Shown here: positions 43,602 to 59,994 of the stretch, piece by piece
Layout: each line of letters opens with the position of its first letter
Numbering within the stretch: the stretch's first letter is position 1
Assembly: GCA_965215605.1 (NCBI GenBank)
Contig: OZ244070.1
Location: forward strand, 2,112,001 to 2,176,000
Source of the DNA: an uncultured Candidatus Binatia bacterium
GTDB taxonomy: Bacteria; Desulfobacterota; Binatia; UBA9968; JAJDTQ01
DNA: 64,000 nucleotides
Reading direction: 5' to 3'
Program-made: the position numbers and the translations under genes
Notes under the pieces: model-generated
What the model was told of the DNA's origin: nothing
The model's input: the letters and a program-made list of their open reading frames with translations, nothing else
The model's database searches: none

Positions 43602-46600
43602 ATGAAACGGACAGACGAATTCTTCGAACTCAGCGCCACCGACCTGGTTGCGTACCTCAATTGCCGCCACCTTTCCGAACTGGAGTCTGCCGCGGCAGAA
43701 GGTGTGCTGGCGAGGCCCGAGATATGGGATCCGTATCGCCAGATCCTTAGAGAACGGGGCGCGGCGCACGAGGAAGGGTACGTAGCGCATCTGACCGGGG
43801 AAGGTCTGGACGTCGTGCGCATCGAGGGCGTCGAAATATCCAATCAAGCAGTCTCCGACACGCTTGCGGCCATGAAGGATGGCGTCGAGGTCATCGTTCA
43901 GGGCGCTCTCTCCCACGATCACTGGGTTGGACGTGCCGATATCCTGCGCCGCGTCGAGGGCGCAAGCCGCTTCGGGTCCTGGTCGTACGAGGTGATGGAC
44001 ACCAAGCTCGCGCGGGAAACGAAGGCCGGGACGGTGCTCCAGCTCTGCGTCTATTCCGATCTGCTGGAGAAAGCCCAAGGCACAACGCCCGAATACATGC
44101 ATGTGGTCGTACCGTGGTCGGATTTCGAGCCCCGGAGTTATCGGCTCGCCGACTACGCCGCCTATTTTCGCAAGGTACGACGTGGGTTGTTGGCGGCCAT
44201 GGCACAACGCGGGACGCCAGCGACCTATCCCGAGCCGGTGGAACATTGCGACCTGTGCAGGTGGCGGGAGGCTTGCGACAAGCGCCGTCGCGACGACGAT
44301 CACCTCTGTCTCGTGGCGGGAATCTCGAAGCTGCAGATCAACGAGTTGAAGCAGCGCGACGTGACAACGTTGCGGCGCCTGGCCGGTATGCCCCTTCGGT
44401 TGGACTGGAAGCCGGACCGAGGGTCCCCGGAAGCCTACGGGCGCGTCCGCGAGCAGGCACGGGTTCAGTTCGAGTCCCGCGAGACCGGCGAGAAGACCTT
44501 CGAGCTGCTTCCGGTGGAGAAGGGCTTCGGCCTCTCTTTGCTCCCGGAACCGTCGGACGGCGACATCTTCTTCGACCTGGAAGGCGATCCGTTCGTGGGT
44601 GAGCACGGCCTTGAATATCTGTTCGGCTACGTGTCGATGAGCGACGCCGGCGAGCCCGTGTACCGCGGCGAATGGGCACTCTCGCGAACCGAAGAGAAAC
44701 GGGCCTTGGAGAATTTCGTCGACGTCGTCATGGACCGCTGGGAACAGTTCCCGGACATGCACGTCTACCACTACGCTTCCTACGAGCCGACGGCCTTGAA
44801 ACGTCTGATGGGCCGTTACGCCACCCGGCAGGAGGAGATCGACCGGATGCTTCGCGCCGGACTGTTCGTCGATCTCTACCAAGTCGTGCGGCGCGGCATA
44901 CGGGCCGGCGTGGAGAGCTACTCCATCAAGAGGTTGGAGCCGTTCTATGGATTCGAGCGCCAAAAGGCGTTGGCCGATGCGAATGCAGCCCTGGTGAGTC
45001 TTCAGGCGACCCTCGAACTTGACGATGCGCCCTCCGTGCCGGACCAGGTCAAGGCCACGGTGCTGGCGTACAACAAGGATGATTGCCTTTCCGCCTTCGA
45101 GCTACGCCAATGGCTCGAAACGCAACGTGGTGAGCTCGTGGCGGCCGGTACGGACGTACCCCGCCCGCAACCGGGAGAGCCGGACCCGAACGTAGGGATC
45201 ACCGACTGGCAGATCAAGACCGCCGCGTTGGTGGACAAGCTGACCGCGGACGTCCCCGTTGAACCGGAGGAGCGGGAAGAGGAGCAGCAGGCCCGCTGGA
45301 TATTGGCCCATGTCCTCGACTGGCACCGCAGAGAAGAAAAGGCCGTGTGGTGGGAGTATTTCCGGCTTGCCGGCCTTTCGGTGGAGGATCTTCTCGACGA
45401 GCGTGCCGGACTGTCGGGGCTGACCTTCGTCCACGAGGTCCCTGCAAGCGGAAGGCTGCCCGTACATCGATACCGGTTTCCGGCACAGGAGACCGAGTTG
45501 CGTGGCGGTGAAGATCTCCGTAGCGCGGGCGGGGAGCAACTCGGCTCGGTCGAAGCGATCTCGTCCGATGACTGCACCGTCGATATCAGGAAGCGGAAGG
45601 ACAGCATCGTCACGCACCCCGAAGCGGTCTTCGCCCATCTGTATGTCAATACGCAGGTCCAGAAAGAAGCGCTCTTGAGAATCGGGGAGTACGTGGCGGA
45701 GCACGGCATGCGTGGCGATGGGCCTTATCGGGCAGCGCGCGATCTCCTGCTCCGGGAAGTCCCCCGCGTCGGCGGGGAAGCGCTGCACCGTCAGGGGGAA
45801 ACGACGGTCCAGGCGGCTGTTCGGCTATGCAAGCATCTGACGTCCGGCATCCTTCCGATTCAGGGGCCGCCCGGGGCCGGGAAGACCTTTACCGGCGCGC
45901 GCATGATCTGCGAGCTGGTGCGGCAAGGCAAGACCGTGGGGGTTACGGCCAACAGCCACAAGGTCATCCGCAATCTGCTCGACGCAGCCCTGAACGCGGC
46001 CGAGGAAACCGGGGTGGACCTGCAATGCTGCCACAAGGCGGATGGAGCGGATAAACCCCGGGACGGTCTTTCTCTGGTCACGAAGAATCAGGACCTCTTC
46101 GACGCGCTTGAAGCCGGCGTATCCGTCGGCGGCGGCACCGCGTGGCTGTGGTCCCGCCCGGAGGCATTCGAGACGCTGGAGGTGCTGTTCGTCGATGAAG
46201 CCGCGCAAATGTCCCTTGCCAACGTCCTGGCCGTCTCGCAGGCGGCCAGGACCGTGGTGCTTATCGGCGATCCGCAGCAACTCGATCAGCCGACCCAGGG
46301 CGGTCATCCGGACGGCACCGGCGTGTCCGCCCTGGATCATATCCTGGCCGGCGACAAGACGCTGCCACCGGAGAAAGGACTGTTCCTGCAAGAGACCTGG
46401 CGGCTCCATCCCGACATCTCCGCATACACGTCCGAACTGTTCTATGAAGGCAAGCTCGGTTCAAGGGCCGGTCTCGATCAACAGGTTATCCACGCCAAGG
46501 GGCCGGTGAGCGGCTCCGGCCTGCGCTACCTGCCGGTTGAGCACCACGGCAATCAAAACTGTTCCCCGGAAGAGGCGGAAGTCATCGGCGCGCTCGTGAA

Positions 46601-47045
46601 CGGCATTCTGGAGGGTGGTGCGACCTGGATCGACCGCGACGGCCGGGAAAGCCCCGTCAGGCTGAAGGACATCGTGATCATTACGCCGTACAACGCCCAG
46701 GTCTTCGAGATCCAGCGCGCCTGCCCGGAGGGGGCACGGGTCGGCACCGTGGACAAGTTCCAGGGCCAGGAGGCTCCCATCGCCATCTACTCCACCGCCA
46801 CGTCAAGCCACGCGGACGCGCCGCGGGGAATGGAGTTCCTCTACAGTCTCAACCGGCTCAATGTCGCCACGTCCAGGGCCAAATGCCTGTCGATCCTGGT
46901 GGCTTCGCCGCAACTCTTCGAAGCCGAATGCCGTACCCCGAGGCAGATGCAACTGGCCAACGCCTTCTGCCGCTACCTCGAAATGGCGGAACGGTGTCCG
47001 CAGCAGGCGCCTTCCGGGACGGTGGAGGTCCACGGAAGAGTATAG
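43602..47045 (+). CDS. TM0106-type RecB/Cas4-like nuclease + RNase H-like exonuclease + SF1 (Upf1/DNA2-like) helicase fusion
   Basis: GRADIL…DTK…QLCVY; C…CxxC…C; FFDLEGD…YNKDDC; QGPPGAGKT, DEAAQ, GDPQQL, TVDKFQGQE, RLNVATSRA. Confidence 0.9.
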   Translation: MKRTDEFFELSATDLVAYLNCRHLSELESAAAEGVLARPEIWDPYRQILRERGAAHEEGYVAHLTGEGLDVVRIEGVEISNQAVSDTLAAMKDGVEVIVQGALSHDHWVGRADILRRVEGASRFGSWSYEVMDTKLARETKAGTVLQLCVYSDLLEKAQGTTPEYMHVVVPWSDFEPRSYRLADYAAYFRKVRRGLLAAMAQRGTPATYPEPVEHCDLCRWREACDKRRRDDDHLCLVAGISKLQINELKQRDVTTLRRLAGMPLRLDWKPDRGSPEAYGRVREQARVQFESRETGEKTFELLPVEKGFGLSLLPEPSDGDIFFDLEGDPFVGEHGLEYLFGYVSMSDAGEPVYRGEWALSRTEEKRALENFVDVVMDRWEQFPDMHVYHYASYEPTALKRLMGRYATRQEEIDRMLRAGLFVDLYQVVRRGIRAGVESYSIKRLEPFYGFERQKALADANAALVSLQATLELDDAPSVPDQVKATVLAYNKDDCLSAFELRQWLETQRGELVAAGTDVPRPQPGEPDPNVGITDWQIKTAALVDKLTADVPVEPEEREEEQQARWILAHVLDWHRREEKAVWWEYFRLAGLSVEDLLDERAGLSGLTFVHEVPASGRLPVHRYRFPAQETELRGGEDLRSAGGEQLGSVEAISSDDCTVDIRKRKDSIVTHPEAVFAHLYVNTQVQKEALLRIGEYVAEHGMRGDGPYRAARDLLLREVPRVGGEALHRQGETTVQAAVRLCKHLTSGILPIQGPPGAGKTFTGARMICELVRQGKTVGVTANSHKVIRNLLDAALNAAEETGVDLQCCHKADGADKPRDGLSLVTKNQDLFDALEAGVSVGGGTAWLWSRPEAFETLEVLFVDEAAQMSLANVLAVSQAARTVVLIGDPQQLDQPTQGGHPDGTGVSALDHILAGDKTLPPEKGLFLQETWRLHPDISAYTSELFYEGKLGSRAGLDQQVIHAKGPVSGSGLRYLPVEHHGNQNCSPEEAEVIGALVNGILEGGATWIDRDGRESPVRLKDIVIITPYNAQVFEIQRACPEGARVGTVDKFQGQEAPIAIYSTATSSHADAPRGMEFLYSLNRLNVATSRAKCLSILVASPQLFEAECRTPRQMQLANAFCRYLEMAERCPQQAPSGTVEVHGRV

Positions 47046-47392: not shown

Positions 47393-47589
47393 TCGCCCCA
47401 AAGGGCAAGCAGCATGGCGCCCTTCAAGACATAGCGCTCACGGTGCCGCGATTCTCCGAGGCGGTAGAGGAAGCGCTCTGCCGTGTATCGTTGCAACAGG
47501 GCCTCGAAGTTCTCGCCGGTTTTGCGGCTCCGATTCAGCAGCCTTGCACGTACCGACGCACCGACATTTCGGTATTCTCCAGGTGTCAT
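47344..47589 (-). pseudogene. abiEii: 3'-truncated AbiEii nucleotidyltransferase toxin
   Basis: ASVRARLLN…YTAERFLYRL…VLKGAMLL; similarity stops after about 65 aa, before the T-x-D-x-D catalytic motif; ATGA overlap with abiEi. Confidence 0.8.
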
Positions 47590-48194
47590 AGCCGAAGCGC
47601 CTCCAGGTAGGGCCGTATGACAGTCCGCGCGCGGCACGCCTCAGCCGCGCGCACGATCTCATCCACCGTGGCTGCTCCCGAGCGCAAGACGTCGTGCAGC
47701 GCCTCCATCGCGATGTCCAGACCGAACTTGTTCCGATAGCGAAAGCAATCCACAACGGTCCGGGCGGGCGAGGTCATGAGAAACGGGACGCCCAAGGCCC
47801 AATGGCGGACCACGCCGTAGGTGAGCCCTGCACCTGAGAAACGGACGACTCGCATACGGGCGGGAGGATGCGCCGGTTTGCGCGCTTTCCGATCGAGGGC
47901 GACCCAAACTTCGTACGGCAACTGGGTGCCGATATCGTGAAAATGGAGCGCTGTGACCAGACACATGATGGCGTTCGGGACCGCCGCCGCCACCATGGCA
48001 AGGGTCTCGAGTTCGGTGGTTTCCACTTCCGAGAGTCTATAGAGGCCGTCCCCGAAGTTCTCCACGGACCCGTCGAACACGAGGTTTTGAAGACGACGAT
48101 GGGAAATGCCGAGGGGTGCGATGTCCCGAGGCCGGAAGAAAGCGCCGACTCCTGCTTCCCGCAATATGTCAAGAGTGTCGAGAGCGACGGGCAT
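47586..48194 (-). CDS. abiEi: AbiEi type IV TA antitoxin
   Basis: N-terminal wHTH with GLYRL, CLVTALHFHD, RTVVDCFRYRNKFGLD, IRPYLEA. Confidence 0.88.
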   Translation of the reverse strand: MPVALDTLDILREAGVGAFFRPRDIAPLGISHRRLQNLVFDGSVENFGDGLYRLSEVETTELETLAMVAAAVPNAIMCLVTALHFHDIGTQLPYEVWVALDRKARKPAHPPARMRVVRFSGAGLTYGVVRHWALGVPFLMTSPARTVVDCFRYRNKFGLDIAMEALHDVLRSGAATVDEIVRAAEACRARTVIRPYLEALRL

Positions 48195-48207
48195 CCAACG
48201 ATGATAA

Positions 48208-48243
48208 CAAATGTCGGCACTTTAGTTCAAGTGCCGACATTTG
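48208..48243. promoter_or_regulatory. Perfect 15-bp inverted repeat: AbiEi operator and/or grdA terminator
   Basis: CAAATGTCGGCACTT-tagttc-AAGTGCCGACATTTG, 13 bp upstream of the abiEi ATG. Confidence 0.7.
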
Positions 48244-48253
48244 ATGTCCTCGT

Positions 48254-48724
48254 CTACCCTGCCCGCATCCCCGCCAACGCCCCCACGATCGCGTCCGCTT
48301 CCAGCCCCATCTCCAGGATCTCGATGTTCTCGGCGTACTGGTCGGGGTCGATGGCGGCTTTCACGTTGGGCTCGAAGACGTGGTAGGCCGGGAGGCCGAG
48401 CTCCACGCCGGCGAGGGGGCCCGCGTAGGAGGGGTCGCCGGTCGTGACGGTCTCGAACTGGACCTGGCTGCTCTCGGTGGTGGGGGCGCCGAGCAGCACG
48501 ACGATGCCGTCCTTTCCGTATTCTTCAGCGAGTTCTTTTATTCGACCTTGATCCTCAAGGTCCATGGCCCCAGCGGCTGTTCAAACGAAGCACTGGGTGG
48601 CGGCGTACGCGACTTCGCCTCCCAGTCCCGCGATGGCCTGCTCGATGACCGGGGCGGGGACGCCGTCCCGCTCGCCGAGGATGATGAGCTTCTTGCCGTT
48701 GAGGGTGATGGGTTGTGCCGTCAT
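48254..48724 (-). CDS. grdA: Glycine/sarcosine/betaine reductase selenoprotein A (156 aa, Sec at codon 48)
   Basis: [61 protein letters not shown]…ETVTTGDPSYAGPLAGVELGLPAYH; AAGGAG RBS. Confidence 0.93.
48544..48562 (-). promoter_or_regulatory. Bacterial SECIS-like hairpin
   Basis: GACCTTGA-GGA-TCAAGGTC, perfect 8-bp stem with a G-initial loop, separated from the UGA by 18 nt. Confidence 0.75.
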
Positions 48725-48807
48725 GAGAGTTCTCCTTGTTTGGTAGGGTCAAACCTTGAACTTGACTCTATTGGTGTAAAACTTCGTATGTTCGCGGGGG
48801 TTGAGAG

Positions 48808-50262
48808 CTACTGTCGCTTGTCGTTCCGCTCGATCAGCACCGACATGCCGTCCGTCAGCTCGGTCATCTGGCCGAGGAACAGGCTGGCGCGGGCCACCAG
48901 CATGCAGTTCCGGATGGCGCCCGCGGCCATCTCCCGGAGCGCGTGGGGCACGTACACGAAACCCGAGGCAATGTGCCCCTGGGTGGGGGCGTAGCCGCAC
49001 ACCCCCTTGGCGCGCGCAAAACCGGCGATGTCGCTCCGGTCGATCTCCTTGGCCATAGCCAGCATGGCGGCCATCATCTTGTAGTTCCGGGCGGCCACGT
49101 CGCCGGCCTTGGCGGACACCATGATGTCGGGGTTGTGCACCTCGGTCACCACCCGATCGAGCCGGTCGACGCCCCATTCTAGCCGCCGCAACGGCTCCAG
49201 GACAAGCTCCCGGAACTGCTTGTCGAGGGCGGCGCCGGCCTTGACGGGATGCCGTCCGACGGCTTGCAGGTTCACCACCGGGCTCTTGCCGTCGTCGCGG
49301 CCGATCCACACGGCCACCGCGGACAGCGCGTCTTCCAGCACCGGGATGCCTTGTTCGAGGTGGTATAGGGACTTCATCCCGAGCTTGGGAAGCGACCCGC
49401 CGCCCACCACGACCACGTTCTCGAACACGCCGCTGTCCACCAGCGAGGCACCGATGACCATGGCGGGAATGGGCGCGGCGCAGAAGTCCTTGATGTCGAT
49501 GCCGGTGCCGAGATCGCAGCCCGCGAACTCGGCGATGGCCTTGGCCATGTTGCCGCCGCCTCGCTGGTAGCGGTCGCCCACCGCCTCCTCCGAGCAGCTC
49601 AGCACCAGGTCGACGTCGCTCAGGTCAAGACCGTCTACGTGGTTCAGCAGCTCGTGCACGGACAGCGCGCCCGAAACCTTGCAGCAGAGGTTCTCCAGCA
49701 GAACTGTCGCCGAGAGCGCTTCGTCCTCGGAGTGGCCCGTCTTGACCACTCCCACGGGCGCGCCTTCGCCGCCGGCGAAGAGCGGCAGGGAATCGGCGGC
49801 CGCCAGTTCCTTGTCCAGTTGGGCGTCGTCCACAAGCGCCGGCGTGCGGGAGGCCAGCGGCGCCGTGAGCGGCGAGGCCGAGAGCGCGGGATGCATCTCC
49901 TCCCAGAACCGTTCCCGCAGCAGCACGTGCTTGAAGGGGTCCGCGCAGGCCAGCAGGGCGAGGAAACGCCGTTCCTCCATGATGTGCCCGAAAGGTGTGT
50001 CGGCGCCGTCGGCGTCGGCCAGCTTGTCGAACCAAGGCTGCTCCACTTCCCAGAGGCGGGCCGGCGCCTGGCTGCCGATGAACACCTGGTTGGGAAGGTA
50101 ACGGCACGCGTCGTCGTAACCCCACAGCCCCCGCGTCAGATCCGCCAGGAACTCCGGTTTGGCCTTGGCCTCCCGGAACGGCTTGGAGCCGTAACGGACC
50201 AGGCTCGGGGTGTGGGCGAGGGCGGTGGCGGCGCCCTTGATGACGGGTCGGTTCGTCGGCAT
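48808..50262 (-). CDS. grdC: Glycine/sarcosine/betaine reductase component C, large (FabH-like) subunit
   Basis: LAHTP…YGS, DEALSATVLLENL, CSEEAVGDRYQRGGGNMAKA, FCAAP, KLGM, HNPDI, GYAPTQGHIASG, SLFLGQMTELTDG. Confidence 0.9.
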   Translation of the reverse strand: MPTNRPVIKGAATALAHTPSLVRYGSKPFREAKAKPEFLADLTRGLWGYDDACRYLPNQVFIGSQAPARLWEVEQPWFDKLADADGADTPFGHIMEERRFLALLACADPFKHVLLRERFWEEMHPALSASPLTAPLASRTPALVDDAQLDKELAAADSLPLFAGGEGAPVGVVKTGHSEDEALSATVLLENLCCKVSGALSVHELLNHVDGLDLSDVDLVLSCSEEAVGDRYQRGGGNMAKAIAEFAGCDLGTGIDIKDFCAAPIPAMVIGASLVDSGVFENVVVVGGGSLPKLGMKSLYHLEQGIPVLEDALSAVAVWIGRDDGKSPVVNLQAVGRHPVKAGAALDKQFRELVLEPLRRLEWGVDRLDRVVTEVHNPDIMVSAKAGDVAARNYKMMAAMLAMAKEIDRSDIAGFARAKGVCGYAPTQGHIASGFVYVPHALREMAAGAIRNCMLVARASLFLGQMTELTDGMSVLIERNDKRQ

Positions 50263-50326
50263 GGAAGCGACCTTATAACGTCCGCGAAGGCCGGGCAAGG
50301 CTGCACGGCAACGCCGTCCCATGACC

Positions 50327-50425
50327 GTCATTCCGCGAAACAAGCTGTGTCAAAACCCCATCCGAGCGAGGCAACGACCCCCGAAATCGTCCTTCCCGCG
50401 ACAGCTTGTCCCGACCCCGATCCCC
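50327..50425. repeat. Degenerate REP/MITE-like repeat relic
   Basis: GTCATTCCGCGAAACAAGCTG… and GTCCTTCCCGCGACAGCTTGTCCCG resemble GTCATTCCCGCG-type palindromic repeats. Confidence 0.4.
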
Positions 50426-50480
50426 CTCGACGCGCCGCCCTCCTTGTAATATGATCCGCGCATGTCGTGAGGAGGACACC

Positions 50481-51926
50481 ATGCCGGATTCGAAGCAGAA
50501 GCAGTTCGCCATAGACGCCGTGGAGGAGAACGGGAACAACATCGCCCTCCTCGGCGACAACATCTTCTATTTCGCCGAGCTGGGGATGCAGGAATATCGC
50601 ACCACCGGGCTCATGACCGAGATCCTGGAGCAGGCGGGCTTCGAGATCGAGCGGGGCATCTCGGGGATGCCCACTGCTTTCATCGCCACTTACGGATCCG
50701 GCAAGCCGGTGGTGGCGCTCCACACGGAGTTCGACGCCACCCCGTCGAGTTCGCAGATGGCGGGCGTGACCGAGCAGAAACCCATCGTCGACGGCGCCCC
50801 GGGCCACACCGAGGGTCACAACGTCAACGCCGCGGTGATGGTCGGCGCGGCGGTGGCGGTGAAGAAGACCATGGAGCAGTTCGACATCGAGGGGACCCTG
50901 CGGGTCTACGGCGCGCCGGCCGAGGAACAGCTCGTGAGCCGGCCCTACTTCGTGCGGGACGGCTACTTCGAGGACGTGGACGTGGCGCTGCACGATCACA
51001 TCGGCTCCAACCTGGGCACCGTGTACGGCCTGCGGCAGTACGCGCTCATCTCCGCGGAGTTCACCTTCAAGGGCGAGAGCGCCCATGCCGCCACCTCGCC
51101 CTGGAACGCGCGCGACGCGCTGGACGCGGCGGTGCTCATGGACATCGGCTGGGACAAGCTGCGGGAGCATCTCGAGCCTTCCCAGCGCAGCCACCGGGTC
51201 ATCAGCAACGGCGGCGACCAGCCCAACGTCATCCCCAACACCGCCACCATCTGGTGGTTCTTCCGCGAGGCCACGGCTGAGAAGGCGCGGGCGCTGTTCG
51301 AGAAAGCCAAGCGCGTCGCCCAGGGCGCGGCCACCATGACGGACACCTCCTACTCGGTGAACGTGCTGAGCGCGGTGGCGCCCACCCGTTGCAACCAGAC
51401 GTTGGCCGAGGTCATCCAGAACAACATCGAGGCCGTGGGCATGCCGCGGTGGAGCGAAGCCGAGCAGAAACTCGTCACCGACCTTCAGACCAAGGTCAAC
51501 GTCAAGGCCACGGGAATGCCTACGAAGGTGGCCCAGCTCCGCGAGGCCGTGCAGTCCGTGTCCGCCAACGACTCCGGCGACGTCTGTTGGGTGGTGCCCT
51601 CGGGCGTGGTGAACTTCCCGTCCAACATCCCGGGCATCGCCTACCATCACTGGGGCGCGGGCGTCTCCCTGGCCACCTCCGTGGCCCACAAGGGGGCGGT
51701 AGCCGGCGCCAAGACCATGGCCGCCTCCGCCGTTGACCTGCTGATGGACCCGGAACTGGTGGCGCGGGCCAAGGAGACCTTCAGGGAGGAGATCGGCGAC
51801 GTGGAGTACCGTCCGTTGCTGCCCGACGGCCAGCAGCCGCCGCTGGAGCTCAACCGCGTCCTCATGGAGCGTTACCGCTCCGCCATGGAAGCGCACTATC
51901 CCAAGGAGAAGCCCGCATTCAGCTAA
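50481..51926 (+). CDS. M20-family amidohydrolase (AbgB-like)
   Basis: AELGMQE, GMPTAFIA, EFDA, GHTEGHN, PAEE, GESAHA, GGDQPNVIP, AHKG. Confidence 0.88.
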   Translation: MPDSKQKQFAIDAVEENGNNIALLGDNIFYFAELGMQEYRTTGLMTEILEQAGFEIERGISGMPTAFIATYGSGKPVVALHTEFDATPSSSQMAGVTEQKPIVDGAPGHTEGHNVNAAVMVGAAVAVKKTMEQFDIEGTLRVYGAPAEEQLVSRPYFVRDGYFEDVDVALHDHIGSNLGTVYGLRQYALISAEFTFKGESAHAATSPWNARDALDAAVLMDIGWDKLREHLEPSQRSHRVISNGGDQPNVIPNTATIWWFFREATAEKARALFEKAKRVAQGAATMTDTSYSVNVLSAVAPTRCNQTLAEVIQNNIEAVGMPRWSEAEQKLVTDLQTKVNVKATGMPTKVAQLREAVQSVSANDSGDVCWVVPSGVVNFPSNIPGIAYHHWGAGVSLATSVAHKGAVAGAKTMAASAVDLLMDPELVARAKETFREEIGDVEYRPLLPDGQQPPLELNRVLMERYRSAMEAHYPKEKPAFS

Positions 51927-51949: not shown

Positions 51950-53422
51950 GTGCGGCTACGCGCGATGCTCGACCGCGCCACCTCCGGCGAGAGGATCCAC
52001 GGCAGGCCCCGGCTTCGCCCGTCGCTGGTCGACAAGGTGCTGCGAGACCCGTTCTGGGTGTGGTGCCAATACCACGCACCCCGTGGCGAGGCGGTGAGCG
52101 AGGTCGGCCGCTACGAGCGGATGCGCTACCGCCGCGGCGTCGAGCACGAGGACGCCTGGGTGGCCGCGCACCATCCCGACGCCCTGGCGATCCGGCCCGA
52201 CTTCGGCTACGAGGCCCTGGCCCGCACCCTCCGGGCCATGCTGGATGGCGTTCCGGCCATTCATCAGCCGCAACTGTGGGATCTCGGGCGCGACGTCTAC
52301 GGCCGGGGCGATCTGCTGGTGCGCGACGACAGCCACGGCTCGGACCTGGGCCCCTACCACTACCGCGTCATCGAGATAAAGCGGGCGCGTAAGCTCCGGG
52401 ATGCCTTCGCGCTCCAGGCGGCCCTCTACAACCGGACCATCGGCGCCATCCAGGGCTACACCCCGAGCCAGGTGACGGTGGCGCTGCGGCACGATGTCCA
52501 ACCGGTGGACGTGTCGGGGCTCGGGCGACGGATCGACGATGTCGTGTCGCGTTGGGCCGCGCTGCGGGACGGCGCGGTGGAGCAGCCCGAGACCAGGCGG
52601 CCGCCCGACGTCACCGACTCGCCGTGGCGGGTGTACGGCAACAAGCTGGTACACGAGCGCCAGCACCTGGTGTTGCTGGCCGGGGTGCGGGCGCCCGAGC
52701 GGGCGAAGCTGCGCGCCGCCGGTATCCACGGTGTGAATGATCTATGGAGCCGTTCGCCGGAGGAGATCAACGAGATACTTGGTCCGCACCACGGCTCTAC
52801 GGCCTACCACGTGGCCCAGAGCTACCGGACAGGACAGCCCGTTCCCGGGCCCGGCCGCGAGCTGCGGATACCCCGGGCCAAACGGCTCCTCTACTTCGAC
52901 TTCGAGACCTCCGATGACGTGCATCCGACCCTGCCGCCCCACGTCTACCTCATCGGTTGTTGGGACGGCTCCCGCGACCAGTTCGTCAGGTTCCTGGCTC
53001 GCGGCCCCGAGGACGAAACTGAGATCTTCGAGGGGTTCCTGGACTACGTGGGCGATGACATGGAAGCCGTGCGCCTGTACCACTGGACCGACTACGAGGT
53101 GTGGCAGATGAAGGCGGTCATGCGCCGCTGGCCGCGGCTGGAAGGAAGACTGGCGCGCCTCATCGGCTCCTGTGTCGACCTGAAGCAGTGCATCCAGGAC
53201 GCGGTCTACCTGCCGGTGCCGAGCTACTCCATCAAGAGCGTCGCTCCGGCCCTGGGTTTCAACTGGCGGCAGCAGAGATTCGGCGCCTACGAAGCGCTAC
53301 TGTGCTACTGGGATTCCATCGAAACCGGCGACAGGTCCCTGGCCGAAAAGGCCGTCCGCTACAACGAGGACGACTGCGTCGCCATGTGGCACGTGGACCA
53401 GAGGCTCGCCGGCGGCGCGTGA
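51950..53422 (+). CDS. TM0106-type RecB-like nuclease + RNase H-like exonuclease (no helicase)
   Basis: GRGDLL…EIK…QAALY; YFDFETSD, HWTDYE, VDL, SYSIKSVAPALGF, YNEDDC. Confidence 0.85.
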   Translation: MRLRAMLDRATSGERIHGRPRLRPSLVDKVLRDPFWVWCQYHAPRGEAVSEVGRYERMRYRRGVEHEDAWVAAHHPDALAIRPDFGYEALARTLRAMLDGVPAIHQPQLWDLGRDVYGRGDLLVRDDSHGSDLGPYHYRVIEIKRARKLRDAFALQAALYNRTIGAIQGYTPSQVTVALRHDVQPVDVSGLGRRIDDVVSRWAALRDGAVEQPETRRPPDVTDSPWRVYGNKLVHERQHLVLLAGVRAPERAKLRAAGIHGVNDLWSRSPEEINEILGPHHGSTAYHVAQSYRTGQPVPGPGRELRIPRAKRLLYFDFETSDDVHPTLPPHVYLIGCWDGSRDQFVRFLARGPEDETEIFEGFLDYVGDDMEAVRLYHWTDYEVWQMKAVMRRWPRLEGRLARLIGSCVDLKQCIQDAVYLPVPSYSIKSVAPALGFNWRQQRFGAYEALLCYWDSIETGDRSLAEKAVRYNEDDCVAMWHVDQRLAGGA

Positions 53423-53660: not shown

Positions 53661-54185
53661 TCAACGCGGCCCCGCCCACTCCTCCAGGACAAACTCCGCG
53701 AGCACTCCGTCCAGCCACTTCTTCGTATAGTGACGTTCGAGGGCATTCCTCGGCCGATGACCCGCGTCGACGAGCAACTCTTCGAGAGACACAAGCCGTT
53801 CCCGAAACCCGAGATTCACTCCGCAACGCAGACTAGCTTTGTCGGGACCGCACAGGAACCATCCGTCATCCCGCCCCAGCGCGTGCGCCCAGAGCGCCTC
53901 CTCACCCTTGTCCAACGCGATGTCCTGAATCCGAACCAACAGTCCGGCGCGTTCCCTGTCGCCAACATGATGCACCGCCGAGAGCGAGCCCCTTAGCTCG
54001 CTGGCAATGATCGACTGCTCAGACCGTCGCAACTGGAAGCCCGTCTGCGTCTCCGTCACGCAATCTTCAACGGTTTCCACCCGATAGCCACCAGCCAGCG
54101 CCTGCCACGAACTCGTCCGATGCGACTCGATGATCGTATTCGTGTCCACGAGCAGCGCCGTCTCGTGGTCGACCCTTCTGCTCAC
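53661..54185 (-). CDS. PIN-like domain protein
   Basis: LLVDTNTIIE, LDKGEEAL, CGPDKASLR; GTGA overlap with the upstream gene. Confidence 0.7.
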   Translation of the reverse strand: MSRRVDHETALLVDTNTIIESHRTSSWQALAGGYRVETVEDCVTETQTGFQLRRSEQSIIASELRGSLSAVHHVGDRERAGLLVRIQDIALDKGEEALWAHALGRDDGWFLCGPDKASLRCGVNLGFRERLVSLEELLVDAGHRPRNALERHYTKKWLDGVLAEFVLEEWAGPR

Positions 54186-55285
54186 AGCCCAATCGCCTGA
54201 TCTACGCCATGGGCCGCAAACAGTTCTTCCAGGTCCTCGATCGGCAGCCCGACCAGCGCCGCTGCACGCCGAACCGAGACATGGCCTTGGTCGATGGCCT
54301 TCGCCACAACCTCCACGAATGCGCGTGAGAATAAAGGCGGAGGCTCCGAGGAGTCCTCGCGACCGTTGTTCCGCAAAGCGGCTTCCGGAATTGCTCGCGC
54401 CTGCCCCTTGGGCAACTTCCGGAGAGCGACCAAACGCCACCTGAGGGCAGACGAGGTCACACACAATTCGTCGGCCGTAGCGTTCAATCGGGTGATCAAG
54501 CTATTCACGTCCAGCCGCCCCCAATCGTCAAAGGAGTCAAGCGCCGCCTTCGGCATCAGCACGGCGGCCGCGAAGTTGTTGGCCAATTGCTCCACCCGAT
54601 TACCACTGAAATCGCTGGCATCTTCCGTGTGCTCCGGCGGCATCGCTTCCCAAGTGAGGATGTGAAACAGTTCATGCGCAAGGTCGAAGTTGCGGCGCCC
54701 CGCCACTTCTCCTCGTGCGACCAGCACCGCGTCGAACTCGGGCAGACGGCACGCCGCTCCAGAAATACCTCGGTAGGCGTCCACCATAAGCACGAGTATC
54801 CCGAACCGATCTTGCATCGCCGCAGCGAGACGTTGCGCCGGCACAACCCCGAGTTCGAACTCCGTAACAAACCGCTCGCCGGCGTCCGTTGCGTCCTCGA
54901 ATCTCGACACCTTCGTCAGCCCAAGGGCCTGCCGCATCAACGGCGCCCGTTGACCCACCTGCGCGGCCAGGATCCGGTACGCGCCGATCCAGCGACCAGC
55001 CGTCCGCTCATACTCGCCAAGCTCCGACGGTCCGACGCCCCCCTGTCGCCAGGAGAACAGCGCCTCGCCGTCCAGCCGAAAGGGGTCGGTGAAATAGTCG
55101 AGCGGGACACGCAATTTCTCCACGGCGAGCAACAGTTCCTCCGCAGTCACACGTCGTACGCCGTTCTCTATTGCCGACACCGTCTGTCGATCCTTGAAAC
55201 CGAACAAACGCGCCATTTCGTCCTGAGAAAGGTTCCGCGCCTGTCTCAACGCCTTGAGTCGTGTACCGATGATCTGACCCGTCAC
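54182..55285 (-). CDS. XRE HTH-ImmA/IrrE metallopeptidase fusion
   Basis: RLKALRQARNLSQDEMA…VSAIENG; RRNFDLAHELFHIL (HExxH), EQLANNFAAAVLMP. Confidence 0.9.
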   Translation of the reverse strand: MTGQIIGTRLKALRQARNLSQDEMARLFGFKDRQTVSAIENGVRRVTAEELLLAVEKLRVPLDYFTDPFRLDGEALFSWRQGGVGPSELGEYERTAGRWIGAYRILAAQVGQRAPLMRQALGLTKVSRFEDATDAGERFVTEFELGVVPAQRLAAAMQDRFGILVLMVDAYRGISGAACRLPEFDAVLVARGEVAGRRNFDLAHELFHILTWEAMPPEHTEDASDFSGNRVEQLANNFAAAVLMPKAALDSFDDWGRLDVNSLITRLNATADELCVTSSALRWRLVALRKLPKGQARAIPEAALRNNGREDSSEPPPLFSRAFVEVVAKAIDQGHVSVRRAAALVGLPIEDLEELFAAHGVDQAIGL

Positions 55286-55510: not shown

Positions 55511-58500
55511 CTAGAGTGGGTTCTCCCGAACATGGTCCGGCTGCAGCGCCGCCGGGTCCTGCTGGGGCTCGGTCGCGGGCGTGGCAGTCCCGGCGGCGTC
55601 CGCCGGCTCGCCGGCGTGGGCCTTCCGCCACACCCGTTCCCGCACCGACGCGTAGAGCACCGGAATCAGCACCAGCGTCACCAGCATGGACGTGATCAGG
55701 CCGCCGATCACCACCCGAGCCATGGGTGCCTGAATCTCGCCGCCTTCGCCCCATGCCAATGCCAGCGGCACCAGTGCGAGGACCGTGGTCAGGGTCGTCA
55801 TGAGGATCGGGCGAAGACGGGTGCGGCCCGCGAGGACCACCGCGTCGACAACGCTCAGGCCCTCCTCGCGCATCTTGAGGTTGATGTAGTCCACCAGCAC
55901 GATGGCGTTGTTCACGACGATGCCCACCAGCAGGATGATGCCGATGTAGGAGTTGACGTTGAGGCTCGTCCCGGTCACGTGGAGCGATGCGAGCACGCCG
56001 ATGGCGGCGAAGGGAACCGCGAACATGATCACCAGCGGATCGAGCAGGCGCTCGAACTGGCCCGCCATGACCATGTAGACCATGAGCAACGCAAGGAGCA
56101 GGCCGATCCGCAGCTCGCCGAAGGCCTTCTGCTGTTCCTCGAAGTCCCCGCCCACCTGGAGGACCATGCCCTGCGGCAGCGGGATCTGTGCCAGCGCCGC
56201 CTGAATCTCGGCCACGGCGCCGGCCATGTCGCGTCCCGAGACCTCGCCGGAGATGGACACCACCCGTTCCTGGTTGAGGCGCTGGATCGACATGGGTCCG
56301 CGGCGTTCCTCTAGCCGGACCAGGTTCTTGAGCGACAGCACCCGGCCCGAGCCGTCGGAGACGCTCTGATCCAGTAGCCCGTCCAGCTCGGCGCGGTCGT
56401 CGCCGCCGAGACGAACGCGCACGTCGTACTCGTTGCCGCCCTCGCGGTAGAACGTCGCCCGTATGCCCCCCAGGCTCGCTTGCAGGCCGCGGGCGATGGT
56501 CTCCACCGGTATGCCGAGGCTTGCCGCCCGCTCCCGGTCCACGTGAATGCCCATTTCTGGCTGTCCGGCCTGCCGGCTGATGCGGACCCCGGCGACCCCG
56601 TCAACGCCGTCCATGGTGTCCTTCACCTGGCGCGCGACCCGCTGTAGCTGGTCCAGGTCGTGACCGCGCACCTTCACGTCGAGGTTGTCGTTGTCGGTGA
56701 ATCCGAGGCGTCTGAAGATCCACAGCCCGGAGCTCGCGCGTACGCGGGCGCGCATCCCGGGAACCTCGCTGACCCGCCGCCGCAGGACTCTGACGATGTC
56801 CTGATCGGACCGTTCCCGGGTGTTCCTGGGCCCCAGCCACACGTACACGCGCCCGTTGTTCTTGCCGCGGGCGCGCCAACCGAACTGGCCGAAGCGGGTG
56901 AAGTTCCGGTGCGGCTCGGTGACCTCCTGTTTCACGATGGCCTCGAGTTGCCGGAAGGCGCGGTCGGTTTCCTCGATCTTCGATCCGGCCTCGGTCTCCG
57001 CGATGATGATCACGTTGCCCTCGTCGGCACGGGGCATGAACTCGCTGGCAATGCCCTGGTAGAGGAAATAGCTGCTTGAAAGCAGGATCGCCGCGGCCGC
57101 CACCACGGTGAAGCGGTGGCGCAGGCTCCACCCCAGCAGTCCCTGGTAGGCCTTGTCCAGACCCGTTTGGGAACTCGAACCCGCGCGCGCGAGACGCGAC
57201 AGGAAGCGCCCGGTGCGCGCACGGTCCGGCCGGCCCAGGAGATGGTGCGCCAGCACGGGGACCACGGTGAGGGCCACCACCAGGGAGGCCGCGAGGGAGA
57301 AGAACACGACCCACGCGAGCTGTTGGAAGAGGATGCCCGCGGAGCCGGGGACGAAGATCAGGGGCAGAAACACCACCACGGTGGTCAGGGTGGACGCGGT
57401 GATGGCTCCCGCCACCTCGCGCGTGCCCCTGAGGACGGCCTCCCGGCGCTCGGTGCTGGCCTCGTGGTGCCGGAAGATGTTCTCCAGCACCACCACGGAG
57501 TTGTCCAGCAAGAGCCCTATTCCCAGGGCGAGACCGCCGAAGGAGATGATGTTGATGCTGAAGCCCTGGAAGTACATGAGCGCGAAGGTGGCGACGATGG
57601 AGATGGGGATGGCGGTGCCGATGACCACCGTGCTGCGCACGCTGCGCAGGAAGAACAGCAGCACGGCCAGGGCCAGCAGGCCGCCCCAGACCGCGGCCAG
57701 GGTCACGTTGTCCACCGCGTTGCGGATGTAGTGCGCGTTCTCGCGCAGCACGGTTACCCGGATGGCGGGGAGCTCCCGATTGATACCGTCGATGGCCTGT
57801 TTCACCCGGTCCACCACCGCGATGGTATTGGCGGAAGGCTGCCGCCGCACGGAGATGACCACGGCGTGGGCCCCATCCATCCGCACCGCGTGGTCCAGGT
57901 CCTTGAAGGAGTCCTCCACCTGTCCGAGGTCCTTGACATGGATGGGGATTCCGTCGCGGGAGGCCACCACCGTGTTGCGCAGTTGATCGAGATCGGTGAA
58001 CTCGCCCAAGGTCCGTACCGATACCTCCAGGTGGGCCCGGCCGAGATTGCCGGCGGGCAGGTTGATGTTGCTCGCCCGCAGCGCCCGGACCACCTGGTCC
58101 ACCGAGAGATTGAACGCCTTGAGCCGGTCCAGGGACAGGTGGACGTGGATCTCGCGTTCCAGTCCGCCGCGCACGTCCGCCGCGGCCACGCCGGCGACCC
58201 GTTCCAGTCGGTAGCGGACCTCCTGCTCCACGAAGCTCCGCAGCGCCACCGGGTCCATCTGTCCCGACACGCCGATGAACATGATCGGCGACGCGTTGAC
58301 GTCGTACTTGGAAACCACCGGGGCCTCGGCTCCCGGAGGAAGATCGTCCCGGATGCGGTCGATCCGTGCGCGTATGTCGCTCACCGCCACTTCCAGGTCC
58401 TTGTTCCAGCCGAAGCTCACCCGGACCTGGCTGCGGCCTTCGACGGAGATGGAGGTCATGTCCTCCACGCCTTCCACGGAGCTCACCGCCTTTTCGACCG

Positions 58501-58696
58501 GCACCGTCACCAGCGTCTCCATCTCCAGCGGCCCCACGTTGCCGTAGTTGGTCGAGATGGTGACCCTGGGGAAGGTGATCTCGGGCATGAGATCCACCGG
58601 GATCTTGAGAAACGACACCACCCCGAGGATCACGACGATCAGCGCCGCCATGCAGGTGGCCACCGGGCGTCTGAGACAAAGCGCCGTGAGATTCAT
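55511..58696 (-). CDS. RND efflux transporter permease (AcrB/MdtB-like)
   Basis: RRPVAT, IGLLLDNSVVVLENI, GIVVNNAIVLVD, RLRPILMT. Confidence 0.93.
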   Translation of the reverse strand: MNLTALCLRRPVATCMAALIVVILGVVSFLKIPVDLMPEITFPRVTISTNYGNVGPLEMETLVTVPVEKAVSSVEGVEDMTSISVEGRSQVRVSFGWNKDLEVAVSDIRARIDRIRDDLPPGAEAPVVSKYDVNASPIMFIGVSGQMDPVALRSFVEQEVRYRLERVAGVAAADVRGGLEREIHVHLSLDRLKAFNLSVDQVVRALRASNINLPAGNLGRAHLEVSVRTLGEFTDLDQLRNTVVASRDGIPIHVKDLGQVEDSFKDLDHAVRMDGAHAVVISVRRQPSANTIAVVDRVKQAIDGINRELPAIRVTVLRENAHYIRNAVDNVTLAAVWGGLLALAVLLFFLRSVRSTVVIGTAIPISIVATFALMYFQGFSINIISFGGLALGIGLLLDNSVVVLENIFRHHEASTERREAVLRGTREVAGAITASTLTTVVVFLPLIFVPGSAGILFQQLAWVVFFSLAASLVVALTVVPVLAHHLLGRPDRARTGRFLSRLARAGSSSQTGLDKAYQGLLGWSLRHRFTVVAAAAILLSSSYFLYQGIASEFMPRADEGNVIIIAETEAGSKIEETDRAFRQLEAIVKQEVTEPHRNFTRFGQFGWRARGKNNGRVYVWLGPRNTRERSDQDIVRVLRRRVSEVPGMRARVRASSGLWIFRRLGFTDNDNLDVKVRGHDLDQLQRVARQVKDTMDGVDGVAGVRISRQAGQPEMGIHVDRERAASLGIPVETIARGLQASLGGIRATFYREGGNEYDVRVRLGGDDRAELDGLLDQSVSDGSGRVLSLKNLVRLEERRGPMSIQRLNQERVVSISGEVSGRDMAGAVAEIQAALAQIPLPQGMVLQVGGDFEEQQKAFGELRIGLLLALLMVYMVMAGQFERLLDPLVIMFAVPFAAIGVLASLHVTGTSLNVNSYIGIILLVGIVVNNAIVLVDYINLKMREEGLSVVDAVVLAGRTRLRPILMTTLTTVLALVPLALAWGEGGEIQAPMARVVIGGLITSMLVTLVLIPVLYASVRERVWRKAHAGEPADAAGTATPATEPQQDPAALQPDHVRENPL

Positions 58697-59994
58697 TGGT
58701 TCCGCGTCCTTTCCGCTCGGCCGCGACCCCCGCCGGGCCGGCCTTCCCGCCCGGCTCCCCGCCGCCCTCGGCGGGAACCCGCGCGCGGGCCGTCACCAGC
58801 GATCCGGATCCGCTGGCCGTGGCGCACGAGGCTGCTGCCCAGGGTGACGACCTGATCACCTCTGCGCAGGTCTCCCGTCACCTCCACCCAACCGCCGTTC
58901 CGGAGACCCGGCGTGACCTTCACCCGCTCCACCTTGCTGCCTTCGTCCGTCAGCCTGAACACGCCGTACCCCGCCCTGGTCTTCACCGGTGAGGCTTCCG
59001 GAACCATCAGAACGCCGCGTTTGCGCTCCACCACGATGGTGGTACGCGCAAACATGCCGGGCTTGAGCACGCCGTCGGGGTTGTCGAGCTCGATCTCCGC
59101 CTCGGCGGTGCGAGTCTGCGGGTTGAGGATCGGCGACATGCGCGTGATGGTGCCGTTGAACCGCTCGTCCGGGTAGGCGTCGACCTTGACGGCCACCGGC
59201 TGTCCCAGGGAAACTCTGCGGTAGTCCCCCTCCACCACGGCAATGCCGACCTTGACCCGGTCGATGTCCACGACCTCGAACAAGGGGGTGCTGGCACTCA
59301 CGAGGGCGCCGCGGTCCACCATGCGGCGGCTCACGTGACCCGCGAACGGCGAGCGCACCTCGGTGTGCGCCAGGCGGATGCGGGCGTTGTCCAGGCGCGC
59401 CTGCATTTGCAGCATCTGGGCCTTGGTCAGGTCGACCTGGGATTCGGCGGACAGGACCTGGGTCTCCAGGTTGTTCACCTCCTCCCGAGACACCAGGTCC
59501 TTGCCCGCCAGGACCTTGACGTTCTGCCGGCGCCGTTCGAGGTTTTCCAGTTCCGCCTGGCGGCCCTTGAGCGTGGCCTGGGCCACGCGAAGCGATGCCT
59601 GCGCCTCGCGCAAGTCTTCCGCCAGCTCATCCTTCGCGAGCTGCCCCAGCAGTTGGCCCTCCTTGACGCGCTCGCCCACGGTGACGAACAGCTTGGCGAC
59701 CCGGCCGGAGGTCTTCGGCGCAATGGTGACCGCCGCGTTGGGTGCCAACGAGCCCACGTAGCTCAACGTCGCCTCGACGTTCCCCATCCGTACCTTTGCG
59801 GTTTTGACGGTGACCGCGCGGCCCGCGCCACGGCGTCGCCCTTGGTTGGCCTGTCCGGAATTGCGCTGTTCCGGCTTGTTCCTGGCTGCGCCGATTTCAA
59901 ACGGCCCGAGGCCGAGTGGAGGCCCGATGCCGAGGTAGTAGAGCACGCCGACGGCAATCGCCAGGACGACGAGAGTGGCAGCCACGCGTTTCAC
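58693..59994 (-). CDS. RND periplasmic adaptor (membrane fusion protein)
   Basis: N-terminal TM, SGRV…GERVKEGQ, RSPFAG, LKPGMFA. Confidence 0.92.
   Translation of the reverse strand: MKRVAATLVVLAIAVGVLYYLGIGPPLGLGPFEIGAARNKPEQRNSGQANQGRRRGAGRAVTVKTAKVRMGNVEATLSYVGSLAPNAAVTIAPKTSGRVAKLFVTVGERVKEGQLLGQLAKDELAEDLREAQASLRVAQATLKGRQAELENLERRRQNVKVLAGKDLVSREEVNNLETQVLSAESQVDLTKAQMLQMQARLDNARIRLAHTEVRSPFAGHVSRRMVDRGALVSASTPLFEVVDIDRVKVGIAVVEGDYRRVSLGQPVAVKVDAYPDERFNGTITRMSPILNPQTRTAEAEIELDNPDGVLKPGMFARTTIVVERKRGVLMVPEASPVKTRAGYGVFRLTDEGSKVERVKVTPGLRNGGWVEVTGDLRRGDQVVTLGSSLVRHGQRIRIAGDGPRAGSRRGRRGAGREGRPGGGRGRAERTRNQ

Follow-up and report, generated by a model that had tools for sequence, protein, structure and literature searches.

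Two short neighbouring reading frames of 47 aa (48581..48724) and 103 aa (48254..48565) appear in the translation table 11 ORF list on the reverse strand of the analysed DNA, and the locus raises the question of whether they are separate genes or two parts of a single grdA gene in which an in-frame UGA codon is read as selenocysteine (Sec). A further question is which kind of reductase complex such a gene would serve. The analysed DNA, referred to below as the window, is a 64-kb stretch covering positions 2112001-2176000 of contig C1 in the 4.06-Mb assembly (8 contigs, 65% GC) of an uncultured member of the Binatia. The assembly is of the metagenome type, with a completeness of 97.08% and a contamination of 5.74%.

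Structure and Family Assignment of the grdA Gene

Translation with TGA taken as selenocysteine (U) gave one frame that passes through GERDGVP and TQCFV, meets the TGA (48583-48581) at codon 48 and continues to a TAG at 48256-48254 (Table 1). The read-through protein contains the motif C45-F-V-U48. A preliminary description of this DNA had reported a start codon (ATG) at 48724 preceded by the ribosome-binding site AAGGAG, the GERDGVP…TQCFV signature followed by the in-frame TGA and the resulting CxxU redox motif, and had pointed out that the ORF track hides the full gene. All of these elements were found at the described coordinates, with the two table 11 pieces standing in place of 156 codons.

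The proposed identity of the product as GrdA was supported by family-model matches along its whole length. The read-through protein scored 204.8 bits on the Pfam model PF04723 (cut-off 22) and 207.1 bits on the NCBIfam GrdA equivalog NF040748 (cut-off 130), the latter match spanning residues 8-154 and profile positions 1-147 of 151. A search of the PDB with the GrdA sequence returned matches at chance level only (E of at least 0.19), and so no solved GrdA relative was found by sequence. UGA-encoded GrdA with a CxxU motif is a textbook selenoprotein, and the protein appears in a table of PMC13188914.

Table 1. Coordinates of grdA, its sequence signals and associated genes. Positions refer to the window unless a contig (C1) or another locus (L) of the same genome is named.
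Feature	Position	Strand	Remarks
grdA coding sequence	48254..48724	-	156 codons and a TAG stop; selenocysteine is codon 48; translated with TGA=U
Shine-Dalgarno AAGGAG	48732..48737	-	7-nt spacer to ATG 48724-48722; direct sequence reading
CxxU redox motif	48581..48592	-	TGC (Cys45) TTC GTT TGA (Sec48); Sec codon 48583-48581
Putative SECIS hairpin GACCUUGA-GGA-UCAAGGUC	48544..48562	-	starts 18 nt after UGA; apical loop 26 nt after UGA
Perfect 14-bp palindrome	48209..48242	-	12 nt after grdA stop, no U-tract; possible transcript-end hairpin
grdC (reductase complex component C, beta subunit)	48808..50265	-	83 nt upstream of grdA; start ATG 50265 inferred
M20-type amidohydrolase	50406..51926	+	divergent from grdC-grdA; TIGR01891 205.6 bits
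selA, selB, selD	C1:1984272-1988572 (loci L002, L005, L006)		side by side, about 124 kb before the window
tRNA-Sec	C1:259405-259495		73.1 bits against a gathering score of 47; ARAGORN: tRNA-SeC, anticodon TCA
grdB-type genes	L083 7607-8890; L084 7256-8554; L085 8884-10209		TGA at ST/SA-U-GT

In public collections, the N-terminal part of grdA is present as a 47-residue protein belonging to a cluster of 21; the 15 members that were listed are all 47 aa long, and two of them are named 'betaine reductase'. The exact full-length GrdA (with C for U) and the 103-residue part were not present in the public protein collection searched. Calling the gene hidden is fair with regard to automatic gene calls because public collections hold only this 47-residue N-terminal part, and surveys that use such calls consequently under-count Grd systems in Binatia. 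The preliminary description correctly picked out a gene whose kind is already well known and which automatic callers split into two, and the selenoprotein call matters mostly for annotation. A literature search combining Binatota or Binatia with Grd or selenocysteine gave no report of grdA in this lineage among the matches listed, and in sponge-associated Binatota grdH was not detected, according to the available part of PMC9999580. The gene adds a member to the known GrdA family in a lineage for which no printed report was found, and its novelty in itself is low.

Conservation of the UGA Codon and Selection on GrdA

Relatives of the gene were taken from a scan that included one genome per species and comprised 48 loci. 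The closest 22 loci (85-97% identity) mostly belong to genomes titled Candidatus Binatia, some of them carrying older deltaproteobacterial labels, and the remaining ones (45-75% identity) come from Acidobacteriota, Desulfobaccales, Bacillota, Chloroflexota and others. Exactly one in-frame stop was found in each of the 48 relatives, which span several phyla; it is always TGA and always at the homologous codon, which lies inside an invariant stretch beginning with QC[F/Y]. Among the 101 sampled genomes of the Binatia class, GrdA passed the cut-off in 10, each with one TGA.

In comparisons with six relatives, dN/dS was about 0.13-0.33 before the TGA (codons 1-47) and 0.17-0.28 after it (codons 49-156). 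In the 23 closest sequences, 22 columns of codons 2-47 showed synonymous changes only and 15 showed a change of amino acid. Purifying dN/dS values in both halves, together with the synonymous excess, indicate that grdA is one continuous frame under selection.

Selenocysteine Machinery and Other UGA-Containing Genes

The preliminary description had predicted selABCD elsewhere in the genome and had held that the locus would be a pseudogene if this machinery were absent. The profile search of the same genome found selA (580.2 bits), selB (380.1 bits) and selD (374 bits), all above their cut-offs, as well as the tRNA-Sec. Four further UGA-containing selenoprotein genes were read in the genome, namely selD and three genes of the grdB type that carry the TGA at its canonical site. 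The selD product is itself a selenoprotein (KAAG-U-AAK), and its gene has one TGA and a 7-bp hairpin with a GUC loop 33 nt after the UGA.

Two readings compete at this point with translation through the UGA. In one of them, the locus is a pseudogene or a split gene: translation ends at the UGA and yields a peptide of 47 residues, and a second product of 103 residues may be made separately, starting at ATG 48565. It is true that gene callers cut grdA at this codon and that the exact 47-aa fragment with its cluster stands in public collections, but termination would destroy the redox motif, and it is difficult to reconcile with a TGA kept in 48 of 48 loci, with purifying selection on both halves of a continuous frame and with the complete Sec machinery of the genome. 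In addition, a reading of the sequence before ATG 48565 revealed no Shine-Dalgarno sequence at a workable distance. We regard the split gene as very unlikely. Still less credible is the possibility, already considered in the preliminary description, that a TGC was turned into TGA by a sequencing or assembly error and that the locus encodes a cysteine form of GrdA; nothing in favour of it was found. The codon is genuine because the related loci all share it, in 48 independent assemblies, and TGA is also found in all 10 GrdA matches over the cut-off from the Binatia class; moreover, Cys homologues of GrdA were not known according to the available part of PMC1088965. Read-through is thus the reading that we adopt with high confidence: 48254-48724 of the reverse strand is an intact, functional grdA gene, whose UGA is predicted to be read as selenocysteine, probably with the aid of a SelB-bound hairpin.

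Putative SECIS Hairpin

Downstream of the UGA, a perfect 8-bp stem with a GGA loop, GACCTTGA-GGA-TCAAGGTC, was found at 48562-48544; the hairpin alone folds at -9.5 kcal/mol. According to the legend of Fig. 2 in PMC13188914, a bacterial SECIS element (bSECISearch model) has a loop of 3-9 nt with a G in position 1 or 2, a stem of 4-16 bp, a UGA-to-loop distance of 16-37 nt and a minimum free energy of at most -7.5 kcal/mol. The grdA hairpin lies within all four limits, with its 3-nt loop (G in positions 1 and 2), 8-bp stem, distance of 26 nt and the folding energy given above. The preliminary description was therefore right in reporting a perfect hairpin 18 nt after the UGA and in considering it consistent with the bacterial SECIS model. 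The four other UGA genes read in the genome have the same design, namely a perfect stem of 7-8 bp and a 3-nt loop located 18-33 nt after the UGA. The loops are GGC, GGC and GGA in the three grdB-type genes and GUC in selD, and the stems of grdB1 and grdB2 are one complementary swap apart. An Rfam scan of positions 48100-48900 at E<=10 gave no SECIS family, only sub-threshold miRNA-type matches on two hairpins.

Perfect 8-bp stems with loops of 3-9 nt are rare, with 30 register hits in the window versus 7-26 in ten first-order Markov simulations. By an arithmetic estimate, there is a chance of about 1% that such a stem begins within the approximately 22 nt that give a permitted distance from a chosen codon. 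The codons that form the hairpin are rare. In this genome of 65% GC, their shares among synonymous codons, based on ten window genes with 5645 codons, are 6.7% for CTT, 8.9% for GGT, 3.9% for CGA and 20% each for CAA and GAT.

Pair counting in 49 aligned sequences, 42 of them distinct, showed that 81.3% of cells are paired, in comparison with at most 55.1% in slid controls, and that no pair is altered on both sides. Shuffling provided no informative control, since the columns that vary do so on only one side of a pair. The stem coincides with DLEDQG, an invariant peptide encoded by codons that are in part self-complementary irrespective of selection, and covariation cannot confirm the hairpin because the stem sits on this strictly conserved peptide.

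The same circumstance allows another interpretation, in which the gene is GrdA and the UGA encodes Sec, but the hairpin is mainly a by-product of DLEDQG coding and SelB recognises a different or larger fold. The lack of compensatory double changes agrees with it, as does the loss of three of the eight pairs in half of the distinct sequences (21 of 42), which can form only shorter 5-bp hairpins shifted by a few nucleotides. However, the rare codons (CTT, CAA, GGT and, in CGA, the C) occupy precisely the positions needed to complete the stem, and codons 53-61, nine in succession, constitute the longest run without a synonymous change in the 23 distinct sequences of the closest clade. Minimum-free-energy folds vary among the sequences outside the core, and the folding energy of the 60 nt after the UGA is unremarkable (z-score of -1.08; equalled or bettered by 25 of 200 shuffles), which again fits a by-product, whereas the stem-loop design common to the other four selenoprotein genes does not. 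Also contrary to a by-product, the identical 19-nt hairpin is found in four Acidobacteriota rows whose GrdA proteins are 45-49% identical; in the 49-row GrdA tree, the 8-bp hairpin needs three changes, although the well-supported branches alone are compatible with a single origin. Taken as a whole, the by-product interpretation appears improbable to us, and the hairpin at 48562-48544 is quite probably the SelB site. With regard to the bacterial SECIS consensus, the grdA hairpin conforms to its constraints, whereas relatives in other phyla use the shifted 5-bp hairpins.

Neighbourhood of grdC-grdA

The gene upstream of grdA was identified as grdC, since its product scored 511.5 bits on NF040746 (cut-off 450). 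The same gene order was found in 46 of the 48 related loci, where grdC lies directly upstream of grdA; it was not found at L051 or at L075, and in the latter grdA is located at the contig start. An M20 amidohydrolase gene is adjacent to the pair and divergent from it in 19 of the 22 closest loci (L029-L050). A consensus scan for promoters and terminators revealed none in the gap upstream of grdC (50266-50405), and no terminator was found. The palindrome downstream of grdA drew sub-threshold matches to Rfam miRNA models. Its assignment to a repeat family was rejected, as the window contains no further copy of either arm.

Genes of the TM0106 family, encoding RecB-like nucleases, flank the grdC-grdA region on the forward strand at 43602-47045, where the nuclease is fused to a helicase, and at 51950-53422. 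The second of these genes is conserved beside the amidohydrolase in most Binatia loci, and the region downstream of grdA varies among relatives. An AbiEi-like ORF (47586-48194, reverse strand), whose 22.0 bits fall slightly short of the Pfam cut-off of 22.2, and a regulator gene with HTH and Peptidase_M78 (IrrE-like) domains (54182-55285, reverse strand) hint that genes of a mobile or defence type lie close to the grd pair. Further along the reverse strand, an RND efflux pair (55511-59994) consists of an AcrB-type permease (ACR_tran, 862.8 bits) and a membrane-fusion adaptor.

Grd Modules Elsewhere in the Genome

Outside the window, the genome contains three grdE-grdB modules and one lone grdE-type gene. 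The three GrdB-type proteins pass only the broad subfamily model TIGR01918. They remain below the models of glycine GrdB (404.7-455.3 bits, cut-off 602.2), sarcosine GrdF (404.9-485.7 bits, cut-off 800) and betaine GrdH (382.8-444.2 bits, cut-off 775). The residues that follow U are TSTRSG (no cysteines), TCTRCG and TCSRSG, and both cysteines are kept in only one of the three.

Directly upstream of one grdE-grdB module, a gene of 522 aa for a DUF255 thioredoxin-like protein (Thioredox_DsbH) was found (L083 4645-6210). No trxA or trxB was detected among the window ORFs scanned around grdC-grdA, and the DUF255 gene product could be a reductant partner that replaces TrxA/TrxB. The fourth GrdE-type gene (L086 6378-7676) is located about 14 kb before the window and has no grdB beside it; its neighbours encode a TauD-family dioxygenase, a molybdopterin oxidoreductase, a short-chain dehydrogenase, an Amidohydro_2 protein and a TctC-like protein.

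Searches for GrdD, AckA and Pta

GrdD is the PlsX-fold alpha subunit of protein C and forms acetyl phosphate. The GrdD model NF040747 had no match in the genome at E<=0.001, and the GrdD protein of a Desulfobaccales genome, used as a query, gave a single match of 18.9 bits, to the housekeeping PlsX (364 bits on FA_synthesis). Acetate kinase (AckA) and phosphotransacetylase (Pta) likewise had no match in this genome. In the 101 genomes of the Binatia class, GrdD did not exceed the cut-off in any, and GrdA and GrdC passed in the same 10. Judging from these searches, the pattern across genomes argues against an assembly gap as the reason for the missing GrdD, an absence that at 97% completeness is not proof. 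Among five other genomes with the grdC-grdA arrangement, GrdD was found in one, where it belongs to a separate operon. This context, lacking GrdD, AckA and Pta and accompanied by non-canonical B modules, is a less ordinary part of the system than grdA itself.

Proposed Mechanism and Significance

In known Grd systems, the amine is bound by a substrate-specific protein B, and the Sec of GrdA takes the carboxymethyl group; the selenide-sulfide then closes, the two-carbon unit passes to protein C and thioredoxin re-reduces GrdA. The reaction scheme is partly restated in the available portion of PMC13188914. For the gene described here, with its motif, conserved UGA, constrained hairpin, Sec machinery and partner genes, we infer a corresponding course of selenium insertion and, by analogy, of GrdA chemistry. 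During translation, SelB carrying Sec-tRNA(Sec) would bind the hairpin, and the ribosome would thereby read the UGA as selenocysteine, producing the C45-x-x-U48 redox centre. Sec48 would accept the carboxymethyl group split from an amine substrate by a substrate-specific selenoprotein B module. Cys45 would then close the selenide-sulfide bond, the two-carbon unit would be passed to GrdC, the product of the neighbouring gene, and a thioredoxin-type reductant would presumably re-reduce GrdA.

Taken jointly, the data allow a tentative reading, which we consider possible while leaning slightly against it: a shared GrdA-GrdC module may serve three or four dispersed, non-canonical B modules without GrdD, AckA or Pta, the C2 unit leaving as acetyl-CoA or acetate, and the enzyme may have a scavenging role. 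If this is true, the two-carbon unit on Sec48 would exit GrdC as acetyl-CoA or free acetate, with no acetyl phosphate, and the system would carry out nutrient-scavenging cleavage of C-N bonds in contrast to an ATP-yielding Stickland reductase. The amine substrate could in that case come from the divergent M20 amidohydrolase, for instance through removal of the acyl group from an N-acyl amino acid. More widely, a large and mostly uncultured bacterial group possesses selenium-dependent Grd-type reductases without the energy-conserving subunit and the kinases of the textbook enzyme. Among the papers listed by a literature search, none appeared from its title and abstract to describe a Grd system without GrdD, and one of them describes a cluster that includes grdCD.

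Comparison with Known Grd Systems

The GrdA encoded in the window resembles known GrdA proteins in its size of about 150 residues, its end-to-end alignment, its CxxU motif formed via an in-frame UGA and the stem-loop just downstream; the presence of grdC and of grdB/grdE-type partners in the genome is likewise shared with known Grd systems. The arrangement of the genes is different, since a grdA-grdB operon is described in the available part of PMC13188914, whereas the window contains an isolated pair of grdC followed by grdA.

The separate operon with GrdD mentioned above (L088, in the Desulfobaccales genome G102) contains grdA, grdE-like, grdB-like, grdC, grdD, trxA and ackA genes. Its GrdA and GrdC belong to the same families as those of the window pair. 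However, this canonical operon includes GrdD (510 bits), thioredoxin and acetate kinase, which constitute the branch leading from acetyl phosphate to ATP, while the genome of the window has no matches for GrdD, AckA or Pta. Both types of cluster are found in G102, the canonical one at L088 and one of the grdC-grdA type at L055 with no grdD nearby, which makes this genome a natural control for comparing the two designs of Grd cluster. The hosts differ as well: the textbook clostridial glycine reductase belongs to a Stickland-fermenting Firmicute, and the grdA described here to an uncultured member of Binatia with a GC content of 65%. The complex that the window GrdA serves is not that textbook enzyme.
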